This document shows, piece after piece, positions 4,089 through 50,576 of a DNA stretch of 64,000 nucleotides. This stretch comes from Escherichia coli (GTDB lineage Bacteria > Pseudomonadota > Gammaproteobacteria > Enterobacterales > Enterobacteriaceae). The translations under genes and the position numbers were made by a program. The stretch lies in the NCBI GenBank assembly GCA_025544715.1, contig GCA_025544715.1_4109.3. One strand, 5' to 3'. The notes under the pieces were generated by a model. It made no database searches. It was given only the letters and a program-made list of their open reading frames with translations, and was not told the DNA's origin. Every line of letters begins with the position of its first letter. Position 1 is the stretch's first letter.

Positions 4089-4123
4089 TAATGTTTATAT
4101 ACATTATTTAGAGGTGCTAATAG

Positions 4124-5867: not shown

Positions 5868-6119
5868 TTATTTAGGGTTGCCAGAAACCTTCACATATTT
5901 GATAAATGCCAAAATATCATCTTTACTAAAAGATTTTACAATAAATTCGACAGCGGAATCATACTGTTCTTGTTTAGATAGATATTCTTTCATCTTGTTA
6001 ATTTTAATCTGGGCTTTTTCTTTAGCTATTGAAATATCAGGAATTTTGAACTCTACTCCCAACGTATCAGCTAGTTGTTTTGCACGAGATGATACTTTTT
6101 CAATATCCATTAGTTCCAA
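5868..6119 (-). CDS. Hypothetical protein (83 aa)
   Basis: ORF in array. Confidence 0.4.
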   Translation of the reverse strand: MELMDIEKVSSRAKQLADTLGVEFKIPDISIAKEKAQIKINKMKEYLSKQEQYDSAVEFIVKSFSKDDILAFIKYVKVSGNPK

Positions 6120-19710: not shown

Positions 19711-19763
19711 AATAATATCTCCTATAGTTGATGATATTATTTAGAGTATATAATTGTATAGAT

Positions 19764-20183
19764 TTACAACATTTTTTGAATATGTTCTGCTAGTTCATAC
19801 AGCTTAGTTTCATTATTCTCGAACTTTTCATCAACTTGAACATTGAATTTTTCTTCTAGTTCCATGACCATTTCAATCCAATCAAGCCAATCAAAATTGA
19901 ATTTTTCTTCAACTTCCAATTTAGTAAGATTGAAGTTCGCTAATACATCATTCTCTGATGTATCAGAGTAACGAGTAGTGATGAATTTGACAATTTCTTT
20001 TTCAACATCGTTTAATTCACTAGTTTGATATTCTGGCTGAAGATACCACCATTCTCCCTTATTAATAGATTCCAATTCTTGTTTGATTTCATGCATTACT
20101 TTATAACGGTCAGTACTTTTATGAATAGAATTAACTTCTTGATTCAATACATGTAGTGCATTTTTAATACGTTCATTTAACAT
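19764..20183 (-). CDS. Acyl-carrier-protein-like protein with N-terminal extension; Ser to Trp at pantetheine site
   Basis: FDWLDWIEMVMELEEKFNVQVDEKF aligns with ACP helix II DSLDTVELVMALEEEF; codon TGG at Ser position. Confidence 0.5.
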   Translation of the reverse strand: MLNERIKNALHVLNQEVNSIHKSTDRYKVMHEIKQELESINKGEWWYLQPEYQTSELNDVEKEIVKFITTRYSDTSENDVLANFNLTKLEVEEKFNFDWLDWIEMVMELEEKFNVQVDEKFENNETKLYELAEHIQKML

Positions 20184-20195
20184 TTTATCACCTTA

Positions 20196-20226
20196 TAAAA
20201 AAAGAGAACTCCATATGAAGTTCTCT
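20196..20226 (-). terminator. Rho-independent terminator after 929-aa gene
   Basis: Hairpin AGAGAACT-loop-AGTTCTCT then T-rich tract. Confidence 0.6.
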
Positions 20227-20257
20227 AATTATACATAATTACTTTTTCTATGTCAAG

Positions 20258-33130: not shown

Positions 33131-33138
33131 TATTTATA
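33131..33138 (-). promoter_or_regulatory. T4-late-promoter-like box TATAAATA (minus strand)
   Basis: Exact octamer ~35 nt upstream of start codon 33096. Confidence 0.3.
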
Positions 33139-40001: not shown

Positions 40002-40559
40002 TTAGCTCCCTTTGTATTGATGTTTACGTTTAGTACTGTATTTCCAGCCAGTACTGTGTCTTGTTCTGATATCGTCCCAATACGATGGTAATGAACGCAT
40101 CTTACGTCTTCCACGTATATCAGGTTCCCCCTCATCCTTCAGTACTGCACAAGCCATACGACGCTCTTGTTGAGTCTTAGGACGCTTGTATCGGGAGTGG
40201 TTATGTTTGTACATATACGAACGCTTATGTCGCCATTCCGTATCACGAGCTTTGCGTTTATGTTCCCAGTACTCATTATAGAGTATCATGTATTCACCCA
40301 TAAGTAAATCAGGAGATACAAGTAATCCTTTTTCAGTACAAAGATAATAACCCACAAACTCTTCTGGGAACATTTCGTAATAGAAACGGTTCTTCCAAAA
40401 AGTTTCACGATTCTTTTTGTTGAATTCTGCTAAATCAAATTTCATCTTACTGTGGAAACGATCTATCCCTTGATGGTCAGCAATGTATTGAAGTAGATCG
40501 TCTACAATCTCAACTTTACCAGAATCGTGATACAACGTAAATGTTTGGTCAAAAAACAT
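40002..40559 (-). CDS. Hypothetical protein with basic C-terminus (185 aa)
   Basis: ORF in array. Confidence 0.45.
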   Translation of the reverse strand: MFFDQTFTLYHDSGKVEIVDDLLQYIADHQGIDRFHSKMKFDLAEFNKKNRETFWKNRFYYEMFPEEFVGYYLCTEKGLLVSPDLLMGEYMILYNEYWEHKRKARDTEWRHKRSYMYKHNHSRYKRPKTQQERRMACAVLKDEGEPDIRGRRKMRSLPSYWDDIRTRHSTGWKYSTKRKHQYKGS

Positions 40560-40654
40560 ATGAAATCTCCTTTAAGTTAAAATAACCTAATGGAAAGTCA
40601 TTCTTCCTTTAATACATGTTCTCATGATTTGTTCCTTTTGTCAAGATATAGATA

Positions 40655-40681
40655 TAAAAAATCCCTGCCAAAAGACAGGGA
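40655..40681 (-). terminator. Rho-independent terminator
   Basis: Hairpin TCCCTG-loop-CAGGGA then T6. Confidence 0.55.
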
Positions 40682-40785
40682 CGAAAAACTGAAATAACAC
40701 ATGGAGTTCTTTTTAATTTAATAAAAAGTATTATTATTCTTATAAAAGTATTTATTAAGAACTCCACAATATGGCTTCAAATGAA

Positions 40786-40974
40786 TCAAAAACCTTTCTG
40801 AGCTACTAGTTCACGGTACTGTGCACGAGTTAGTACACCTTGTTTGCGTAGAGCTTGTAGACCGGATAGGGTTTCACTCTTACGTTGTTCGTACATACGT
40901 TGTTCTTTGGATTGAATAACTTTCTCTTTCTTAACTTTTGCTACTGGTTCTTGTTTCTTAGGTTGTTTAGCCAT
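40786..40974 (-). CDS. Small basic protein (62 aa)
   Basis: Lys-rich N-terminus; ORF. Confidence 0.4.
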   Translation of the reverse strand: MAKQPKKQEPVAKVKKEKVIQSKEQRMYEQRKSETLSGLQALRKQGVLTRAQYRELVAQKGF

Positions 40975-41042
40975 TTTATATCTCCTTCTGTATTATGATA
41001 ACAACATTATATCATGTATGGGACATAATGTCCCATACAATA

Positions 41043-42482
41043 TTACATATTTTCTTCAGCAAATTCAGCCAGTGGTGAACGAACAACACCTTCTAGTTCG
41101 ATGACACGACAACCTGCCCAGTCTTTAAACTTCTCAGTTACATAAGTCAAACCACTGTTAACTGGACTAATAAACTTACTGTCAATCTGACTCAAGTTAC
41201 CCATAATTACTACTTTACAGTTTAACCCTGCTCGTGTCAAGATGGTTTTTGCTTGTGCAGGTGTAATGTTTTGGAATTCATCAACTACTAGAATAGTGTT
41301 GGTGAATGAACGTCCACGTACAAAGTTTAGTGCTTTAAATTGAATAACATTACGTTTCATAATCTCTTCAATACTACCTTGTGGGTTAGCATCATCTTTA
41401 TGAAGAAACTCTAACGCATCAATCGCGGCTCCACAGAATGGAATCACTTTTTCTGCTTCTGAACCTGGCAAGAAACCAATATCTTCAAACTGTGAGTCTT
41501 GAGTTTTAGAGAAGATGATTCGGTCGTATTTACGTTTTTCCAGTACTAATTCCAATGCAGTAGCAATCGTAATTAGTGTTTTACCAGTACCAGCAGAACC
41601 TAGCAGTACTGTTAGATGTACATCAGGATCGAGAATACTGTTGATAGCGAGTGCTTGTTGGATATTCTTTGCTTTAATATCCCATACTTTAGCACGTAAA
41701 GCCACTGATTGTCCAATGTCTTGGAATACCAAAATATCTTCTGGTGTTAGTGTTCCATCATCTTCCTCAATTGCTGATTGTCCTTCGTACACAAATAATA
41801 CGTCAGCATCATCATATAGGTAATCACCGATGCATAGATTTTGTGGAAGCAGATGTTCAATCAAGCTTTTAGAAATGTAATGATACAAACGACGACCAAC
41901 TTGTTCGGATTGAATATTAGTATTGGTTAAGTTGCTGTATACTTCCCAAAAATTGATTTCCAGATGGTGTTGACCAATGTGAATCAAATCACTATCACCA
42001 ATAACAATATCATGGCGATAATCTTGTACCTCGACACCATAACTTAGTGCTTTGATACGCATGTTGATATCACGAGTTACCAGTACTGATTCTGTTGCTA
42101 AAGCTACCAGAATGATTTTATCATCAGGTACAGTACTTTTGAGAAGGGTTTGAACTTTCTCTTCTGTACCTTTAGTACGAATTAGTGCCTCAGCTTCTTC
42201 GTTTGTAATAACAAACAATTTGCTATCAGGATTCATATTGGTATGAACATCAGCAATATTAACACCAGTACTACTAATCTCGTCATGTGATGCATCTGCA
42301 ATAATTGCTTCAATGTTACGAATAGCAACACGTGCATCGCGTGAAACATCTACATTACGACTCTTAATCGAATCTAATTCTTCCAGTACTGTAAATGGTA
42401 GAATGATTGCAGCACCATCAAAAGCAATAGATGCATTAGGGTCAGATAGTAGTACGTTTGTGTCAATTGTATATTTTTTCAT
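41043..42482 (-). CDS. phoH: PhoH-family ATPase with N-terminal PIN domain (PhoH2-type)
   Basis: Walker A GSAGTGKT; N-terminal PIN-like YTIDTNVLLSDP. Confidence 0.7.
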   Translation of the reverse strand: MKKYTIDTNVLLSDPNASIAFDGAAIILPFTVLEELDSIKSRNVDVSRDARVAIRNIEAIIADASHDEISSTGVNIADVHTNMNPDSKLFVITNEEAEALIRTKGTEEKVQTLLKSTVPDDKIILVALATESVLVTRDINMRIKALSYGVEVQDYRHDIVIGDSDLIHIGQHHLEINFWEVYSNLTNTNIQSEQVGRRLYHYISKSLIEHLLPQNLCIGDYLYDDADVLFVYEGQSAIEEDDGTLTPEDILVFQDIGQSVALRAKVWDIKAKNIQQALAINSILDPDVHLTVLLGSAGTGKTLITIATALELVLEKRKYDRIIFSKTQDSQFEDIGFLPGSEAEKVIPFCGAAIDALEFLHKDDANPQGSIEEIMKRNVIQFKALNFVRGRSFTNTILVVDEFQNITPAQAKTILTRAGLNCKVVIMGNLSQIDSKFISPVNSGLTYVTEKFKDWAGCRVIELEGVVRSPLAEFAEENM

Positions 42483-50499: not shown

Positions 50500-50576
50500 C
50501 TACCCTAGTAACAATGATTCCTTGGGTATTTAGCTTATATAGATCATTTTTTGATCGATGAAAATTGATATACAGC

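Follow-up and report, generated by a model that had tools for sequence, protein, structure and literature searches.

A Hairpin Module with a Putative Late Promoter in RaK2-like Jumbo Phages: A Candidate Small-RNA Family

What is a long, A/T-rich stem-loop doing between two genes of a jumbo phage? The window, that is, the whole stretch of 64,000 nt analyzed here, shares 98% identity with Escherichia phage 121Q and related phages (PBECO4, phAPEC6, G17) and, as judged from its sequence, it is a 121Q/PBECO4-like jumbo coliphage of the genus Asteriusvirus, a group of jumbo myoviruses of ~350 kb. Nearly all genes of the window are carried by the minus strand, and the stem-loop is formed by an inverted repeat placed between the stop codon of a gene for a 62-aa basic protein and an intrinsic terminator (Table 1). 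It looks like the visible part of a conserved module of ~125 nt (40781..40656, minus strand) of RaK2-like jumbo phages. This module is best read as a candidate small-RNA family, so far unannotated, that varies a known regulatory design.

The intergenic regions of jumbo phages are essentially unannotated, and the module offers a concrete candidate that experiments can address. Among the phages that carry it are isolates amenable to laboratory culture, namely 121Q, PBECO4, phAPEC6, CBB, GAP32, BF, and Munch. If the reading proposed below is true, the T4 device of a late promoter inside a hairpin extends from the control of translation to that of a small RNA and, in some genera, to that of termination. 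There is also a practical side: several GenBank records carry what are probably spurious short ORFs over the module.

Table 1. Coordinates of the module and of the features around it in the window
Feature	Position	Strand	Basis or remark
PhoH-like gene	42482..41043	minus	first in the local gene order
sigma70-like promoter with TG extension	41034..41006	minus	promoter scan; upstream of the 62-aa gene
62-aa basic-protein gene	40974..40786	minus	ORF list; PHROG match phrog_24119, function unknown
hairpin 5' strand	40756..40781	minus	includes arm GGAGUUCUU (40765..40757); -38..-13 relative to the putative late start
ATAAATA, putative T4-type late promoter box	40749..40755	minus	5' arm/loop junction, 1 nt past the 5' arm
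putative +1 A and (AAN)4 tract, AUAAGAAUAAUAAUA	40729..40743	minus	A at 40743, exactly 5 nt after ATAAATA
hairpin 3' strand, full	40688..40712	minus	includes arm AAGAACUCC (40711..40703); +32..+56
invariant block ACUCCAUGU	40699..40707	minus	core of the hairpin 3' strand
intrinsic terminator, GUCCCUGUC UUUU GGCAGGGAU + U6	40656..40682	minus	terminator scan; stem 40682..40661
predicted late small RNA, 88 nt	40656..40743	minus	promoter geometry and terminator
spacer from terminator to next gene, 96 nt	40560-40655	minus	
185-aa gene (phrog_12793)	40559..40002	minus	after the 96-nt spacer

The Inverted Repeat and Its Surroundings

On the plus strand, GGAGTTCTT at 40703-40711 has its exact complement, AAGAACTCC, at 40757-40765, and the 45 nt between the two are almost pure A/T. 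In the transcribed orientation, that of the minus strand, the 5' arm is 40765..40757 and the 3' arm 40711..40703. The first-pass annotation had described this repeat with the same positions and composition, and had located it downstream of the 62-aa gene and upstream of a terminator; both descriptions are confirmed, and the gene and terminator coordinates agree with them. As for the arms, taken at that time to be 9 nt long, the exact 9-mers are there, but the pairing is longer. The full complementarity joins 40781..40756 with 40712..40688 in ~23 pairs, five of them G-U, with a dG of about -20 kcal/mol (-19.5; z -4.2) that only 1 of 500 shuffles equals. The repeat 9-mer itself has four copies in the window, compared with 0.34 expected.

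Does the hairpin matter as RNA or as DNA? Folding of a 73-nt segment of the minus-strand RNA gives -15.9 kcal/mol vs -6.6 +/- 2.3 kcal/mol for shuffled sequences (z = -4.1), and none of 200 dinucleotide shuffles is as good; the z-score for a DNA fold of the repeat segment is -3.3. In the window, the duplex is 3.3 kcal/mol more stable on the transcribed strand than on the complement. The repeat points to a hairpin that would act as RNA rather than as DNA.

Upstream of the element, homologues of the 62-aa gene adjoin the PhoH-like gene in relatives as well. The intergenic region between these two genes contains a 31-nt imperfect palindrome (40996-41058; core AUGUAUGGGACAU/AUGUCCCAUACAU), which overlaps the sigma70-like promoter with the TG extension (41034..41006) and gives a weak, sub-threshold Rfam match to freshwater-2 (E = 0.08).

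Has the module been described before? No GenBank record annotates it as an element, although the terminator is annotated as such in the records of phages G17 and UE-S1. When the whole window was scanned, no Rfam 15 family matched at its gathering threshold, and the weak matches that remain, which score far lower, are to leaders and terminator-bearing small RNAs of a generic kind. The non-coding RNAs of phage PA5oct were considered as possible relatives and rejected, their size and position being unrelated (PMC7318152). Likewise, the 16-mer ATAAGAATAATAATAC has no second good copy in the window. A repeated element or general promoter was rejected on this ground and on that of a single copy per contig.

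Conservation within and beyond Asteriusvirus

The intergenic region was aligned from ten Asteriusvirus genomes, with the window as the reference for identity. For the core, 40755..40656, identity to the window amounts to 93-100%, and the comparison values are 84-91% (upper value also given as 98%) for the 62-aa gene, 84-98% for the 3' part of the PhoH-like gene (with one outlier of 55%), and 55-100% for the spacer past the terminator. In these ten genomes, the stretch from the repeat to the terminator is nearly invariant, and this includes the A/T "loop". The A/T stretch, earlier treated as a passive loop, is instead the best-conserved part of the element and carries the late-promoter motif of the group.

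The hairpin 5' strand behaves differently, having only 70-97% identity among Asteriusvirus genomes with the pairing maintained or even better. In ph0011, for instance, the duplex has 23 pairs and -26.3 kcal/mol, and the advantage of the transcribed strand amounts to -11 kcal/mol there, to -6.1 kcal/mol in A4, and, outside the genus, to -6.5 kcal/mol in Hallingskeid. An invariant 3' strand, faced by a 5' strand that drifts while its pairing is kept, implies a constraint on the sequence of the former and on the complementarity of the latter. JNE01 and A4 have another downstream gene, yet they have the same element and terminator; their gene after the terminator is of 244 to 248 aa and has no nucleotidyltransferase match. 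The 121Q-like clade has lost the post-terminator gene but its core is nearly invariant, which argues that the element has a function of its own.

How far does the module extend? The gene order, a PhoH-like gene followed by a small basic gene, was traced into Munch, EJP2, Hallingskeid, CBB, GAP32, XbC2, BF, pEa_SNUABM_12, and fHe-Yen9-04, and the same blocks recur where synteny places them in the Mimasvirus, Eneladusvirus, Munch-like, EJP2/Hallingskeid, and XaC1 phages. The comparison with related phages that the first-pass annotation had proposed as a check finds the element kept across genera. Invariant in the 13 phages found by synteny are, in this order, ATAAATA, an A exactly 5 nt on, A.AA.AAUAA.AA.A, UUU, and CUCCAUGU, followed by a GC-rich terminator. 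In the (AAN)4 triplets, at 40741..40730 in the window, the two A never change, whereas the N does. XaC1, likewise reached through synteny, retains ATAAATA, the +1 A, (AAN)3, and GACUCCAUGUUGUU, together with a new terminator. A pattern search of IMG/VR and metagenomes gave further versions, all of them on jumbo contigs of ~350-370 kb or on fragments and in one copy each, besides six evident chance matches that have no terminator. ATAAATA is invariant in all 20 distinct versions and in XaC1, where seven of the 20 were retrieved by the pattern and are no independent test of the invariance of the motif. At the syntenic site of the Klebsiella phages RaK2, Muenster, and KP13-7 there is a different hairpin and terminator; consequently, the element is dispensable in that lineage.

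The 5' strands differ by clade (GGAGUUCUU, AAACAACAU, or CGAAGAACAAU), but all of them pair with the region of the block, and in every lineage they lie upstream of the putative +1. Outside Asteriusvirus, the 5' arm AAACAACAU pairs with AUGUUGUUU, ~7 nt further 3' than the arms of the window. This type of pairing is extended to 15 perfect pairs in BF, XbC2 has an additional AGAAUG/CAUUCU pairing, a C-to-U change in Hallingskeid yields a G-U pair, and XaC1 has arms of its own, CGAAGAACAAU/GUUGUUCUUCG. The clade arms are out of register in MAFFT alignments, and pairing was judged by duplex and partition-function analysis of each sequence. The duplex z-scores of the lineages range from -1.0 to -7.2, mostly from -2 to -7, the weakest being that of GAP32 (-1.0), and in Mimasvirus and Eneladusvirus the duplex shows no strand asymmetry. 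The putative block-derived seeds are GAACUCCAUGUGUUAU in Asteriusvirus and GACUCCAUGUUGUUUA in the other clades. The earlier suggestion of a regulatory hairpin gains partial support from these data: pairing is kept by arms that differ between clades, and in the window clade G-U pairs work in the minus-strand RNA only.

The terminators tell a similar story. Across the versions, they have 6-9 perfect stem pairs and a U-tail of 2-7 U (U6 in the window), and in relatives the stems are perfect but differ from each other (GGCCAC/GUGGCC, GCCCAC/GUGGGC, GGCCAAC/GUUGGCC, and GGCAUUC/GAAUGCC), so that their two sides co-vary.

Two further observations concern the region just upstream of the element in other phages. 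In the Mimasvirus phages CBB, GAP32, and XbC2, an extended -10 promoter-like sequence, TGGTATAAT or TGCTATAAT, is found ~60 nt upstream of ATAAATA, between the small gene and the element, and it would yield a dedicated long masked isoform. In Munch and similar versions, a small hairpin lies across the stop codon of the gene upstream of the element and is followed by CUGUUU; its compensatory changes (GCAUC...GAUGC vs GCAC...GUGC) are apparent.

A Putative Late Promoter and the Predicted RNA

Why should the junction between the 5' arm and the loop be invariant? In CBB and GAP32, a third promoter class has been predicted, described as "ATAAATA with a concentration of A and T downstream" (PMC5259590). 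Promoters of this class precede structural genes and are similar to the T4 late promoter TATAAATA, both phages encode a gp55-like sigma factor, and the published assignment is a MEME prediction (PMC5259590). In the T4 late promoter, a TATA box of 8 bp is placed roughly a helical turn upstream of the start and an A/T-rich segment comes after it, and the 5-nt spacing from ATAAATA to the A in the module fits this layout (PMC2988020).

The distribution of the motif in the window goes in the same direction. On the coding strand, 7 of the 17 occurrences of [AC]TAAATA are intergenic (six flagged by the script, plus the element itself), though only ~9% of the sequence is non-coding, and five of these seven boxes lie 17-45 nt upstream of start codons; on the other strand, one of four is intergenic. 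ATAAATA is nevertheless a short A/T motif, and the promoter match is here one of motif only. Other candidate T4-type late promoters of the form [AC]TAAATA on the minus strand are at 50533..50527, 33137..33131, 19744..19738, 5875..5869, and 4111..4105.

How could such a module work? The proposed mechanism, taken in full, is that of a late promoter inside a masking hairpin that gives a small terminated RNA, and its probability can be put at about one half. Transcripts from upstream, comprising the PhoH-like and 62-aa genes, would run into the module carrying the 5' arm of the hairpin. In such a read-through RNA, 40781..40756 would pair with 40712..40688, hiding ACUCCAUGU, and the transcript would end at the intrinsic terminator. 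Suggestive of this read-in are the sigma70-like promoter with the TG extension before the 62-aa gene and the absence of a terminator between this gene and the element. At late times of infection, initiation at the invariant A 40743 would be the work of RNA polymerase carrying the gp55-like sigma factor of the phage. The hairpin 5' strand is wholly upstream of this putative start and the 3' strand downstream of it; the late RNA would lack the 5' arm, so that ACUCCAUGU would stay single-stranded, and it would stop at the same terminator after ~88 nt. Its layout would be that of a ChiX-like class II RNA: a 5' (AAN)4, a U-rich part, a C/U-rich block with CUCC, another U-rich part, and a GC hairpin with a U-tail. 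Most likely, such an RNA would base-pair in trans with a target.

Structure prediction is consistent with this switch. The mean unpaired probability of ACUCCAUGU is 0.80 in the late RNA vs 0.05 in a long RNA that starts 45 nt further upstream, and the change has the same direction in 19 of the 20 versions. The equivalent RNAs of relatives are predicted to be 60-92 nt long, and the terminator is the predicted common 3' end of the upstream mRNA and of the putative late RNA. What the sequences show is the conserved repeat, arms that compensate for each other, a match to the motif, and a predicted contrast between exposure and masking, while promoter activity, the existence of the RNA, Hfq binding, and action in trans are inferred. 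A wider formulation would hold for at least five genera of RaK2-like jumbo phages: a single-copy, late, Hfq-class-II-like small RNA with the seed ACUCCAUGU is masked in read-through transcripts, the upstream strand also disables the terminator in Mimasvirus, Eneladusvirus, and Hallingskeid, and only the transcript of the late promoter is short, open, and active. As a whole, this chain is tentative and should be regarded as doubtful.

The closest parallel is found in phage T4. In the early read-through RNAs of e, soc, 49, and I-TevI, the initiation region is hidden by a hairpin, and late promoters located in the DNA for the 5' strand give late RNAs that do not contain it (PMC3014915). As in these four T4 genes, the module has a TATAAATA-like late box, ATAAATA, by motif only, where the hairpin 5' strand meets the loop; its 5' strand is upstream of the putative late start, so that the late RNA could not fold; there is an AUG in its 3' strand; and the phages that carry it are distantly related to T4 and have a gp55-like sigma factor. 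The resemblance ends at what is masked. In T4 this is the Shine-Dalgarno sequence or the start codon of a real gene, whereas the module has neither a Shine-Dalgarno sequence nor a conserved ORF, and it has a strong terminator 20-25 nt after the AUG. With no conserved ORF and a terminator so close to the AUG, the putative late product, of 60-92 nt, resembles a small RNA rather than an mRNA.

What kind of small RNA could this be? Hfq-dependent class II small RNAs such as ChiX have a layout of the (AAN)n/U-rich/terminator type. The module is built in a similar way: its (AAN)n tract is accompanied by U-rich sequence, by a conserved C/U-rich block with CUCC that is predicted to be single-stranded, and by a GC terminator ending in a U-tail. 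In particular, the (ARN)n element with n of at least three is present, as (AAN)4 or, in XaC1, with three triplets, and a U-rich stretch, UUAUUUCAGUUUUUCG in the window, precedes the U-tailed terminator. As with 3'-UTR small RNAs that have their own promoter (the DapZ/MicL type), the predicted RNA shares the terminator of the upstream mRNA. Unlike ChiX, DapZ, and MicL, the putative RNA of the module comes from a lytic jumbo phage and from a phage late promoter, and it is below all Rfam thresholds.

A last parallel is the short RNA of PR'-tR' in lambda and Stx phages (6S RNA, StxS), where a terminator comes very soon after a late promoter (PMC7547250). The putative late promoter of the module is also close before a terminator and, in other genera, a gene lies just past it. 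In lambda, tR' is overridden by the Q protein; unlike this, what appears to act in the non-Asteriusvirus genera, and only there, is an RNA antiterminator in transcripts started upstream.

A search for a target in trans within the window gave no convincing candidate. The best-looking site, at 20200-20220 upstream of an acyl-carrier-like gene, has a dG of -19.9, with 8 of 200 shuffled seeds as good. It is one arm of another hairpin, and it was rejected because it is not conserved: A4 no longer has the complementarity and Turkey3 has no such site, although the seed is identical in both. The region around it deserves a description of its own. At 20195-20250 (minus strand), a perfect consensus sigma70 promoter (TTGACA, 17 nt, TATAAT) is directly followed by the hairpin AGAGAACUUCAUAUGGAGUUCUCU and U7, and the acyl-carrier-like gene's ribosome-binding site (gene: 139 aa, 20183..19764) comes next. 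This hairpin resembles the arms of the 40703-40765 element; ph0011 has it conserved, A4 has an altered form, and Turkey3 lacks it.

Other Explanations and Neighboring Features

Could the structure simply belong to the mRNA of the 62-aa gene? As part of its 3'-UTR, it would serve end protection, processing, or the binding of a protein, with the loop as an RNA motif and no internal promoter. The element does follow the 62-aa gene directly and accompanies it even in JNE01 and A4, whose downstream gene is another, a hairpin at the RNA level is supported, and the internal promoter is a putative one. Such a role, however, leaves unexplained the invariant late-promoter 7-mer at the arm-loop junction and the A 5 nt on, the fact that the 5' strand never reaches beyond the ATAAATA junction, and the opposite behavior of an invariant 3' strand and a drifting 5' strand; we consider it rather unlikely. 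A leader or attenuator of the downstream gene is also unlikely, to a slightly greater degree. Here, the 5' strand would be an antiterminator, only RNAs from the internal promoter would terminate, and the copy of the window would be a relic. The idea draws on Mimasvirus, Eneladusvirus, and Hallingskeid, where a nucleotidyltransferase-like gene abuts the terminator, beginning ~20 nt past it. In these phages, a sequence just past the upstream stop codon resembles the right arm of the terminator, and this mimic (CUGGCCU, CGGCCUUAU, or CGGGCUUAU) pairs with the left arm AGGCCA, UAAGGCC, or UAAGCCC, the mimic/left-arm pairs being CUGGCCUGUA/AUAGGCCA, CGGCCUUAU/UUAAGGCCA, and CGGGCUUAU/UUAAGCCCA. The pairing has a dG of -10 to -13 kcal/mol, is equaled by 0-3 of 300 shuffles, and co-varies with the terminator, which in the models suggests that in these three groups read-through RNAs bypass the terminator and internal-promoter RNAs stop there. 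The same pairing is missing from the window and from all Asteriusvirus genomes (dG -2.9, with 251 of 300 shuffles as good), and an antiterminator was accordingly rejected for the window clade; XaC1 has no mimic either. Moreover, the next gene of the window is 96 nt away with a conserved leader of its own, yet the core is 93-100% conserved.

The remaining explanations concern other signals in the same letters. A host sigma70 promoter, TTAATA-17-AATAAT (40758..40730), would start a shorter RNA near the U-rich tract, without the (AAN)4. It matches the consensus in 9 of 12 positions in the scan and overlaps ATAAATA, and a better match, TTGATA-17-AATAAT/AATAAC, takes this place in Hallingskeid, Munch, and EJP2. 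In Eneladusvirus and Mimasvirus, though, there is no TTGACA-like hexamer there, and the invariant columns follow ATAAATA and the period-3 AAN rather than the hexamers, all of which makes this promoter quite improbable as the explanation. An element acting as DNA was the other proposal of the first-pass annotation, in the form of an unwinding element or a recombination site, and to these one may add an origin or a cruciform. An A/T-rich stretch with a flanking inverted repeat would suit it, as would the two copies of AAAAGTATT, 20 bp apart. Neither form is supported: there are no iterons or tandem repeats and no inflection of the GC skew, the only repeat being one of 9 nt in two copies, and each genome has just one copy of the element, fixed in its position inside an operon. 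In addition, the arms are replaced between clades while the RNA pairing, G-U included, persists, and the invariance reaches into a terminator that is strand-specific. A role as DNA is thus very improbable. Barely credible, finally, is a small protein gene, be it the 52-aa ORF with a GTG start at 40767..40609 or a mini-ORF at the AUG of CUCCAUG. The former is in the ORF list, and short CDSs are annotated across the element and terminator in WPEC5 and BAU.Micro_ELP-22; the AUG of the latter is invariant, and its frame is open to within ~2 nt of the terminator stem, or past it, in all versions. Against both stand the lack of a Shine-Dalgarno sequence, shifts of the frame by a 1-nt deletion in ph0011 and a 4-nt insertion in A4, peptides of 3 to more than 27 codons with only MLF or MCYF in common, other frames that are about equally open, and an ORF that crosses the terminator hairpin. 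The short hypothetical CDSs of WPEC5 and BAU.Micro_ELP-22 are probably spurious.

Beyond the terminator, the neighbors of the module have features of their own. In most genera, the post-terminator gene (e.g., BF_0118) matches phrog_388 (E = 1e-7) and is AadA-like according to the fENko-Kae01 record; genes of this type are absent from the 121Q-like clade and from RaK2-type phages. In the window, the spacer at 40560-40655 (minus strand) contains a TTGACA box and the conserved leader GAAUGACUUUCCAUUAGGUUAUUUUAACUUAAAGGAG. The part of this leader that is proximal to the start codon has an 89% match to Salmonella phage Munch-like genomes and to Klebsiella fENko-Kae01, and a similar leader is present in RaK2.
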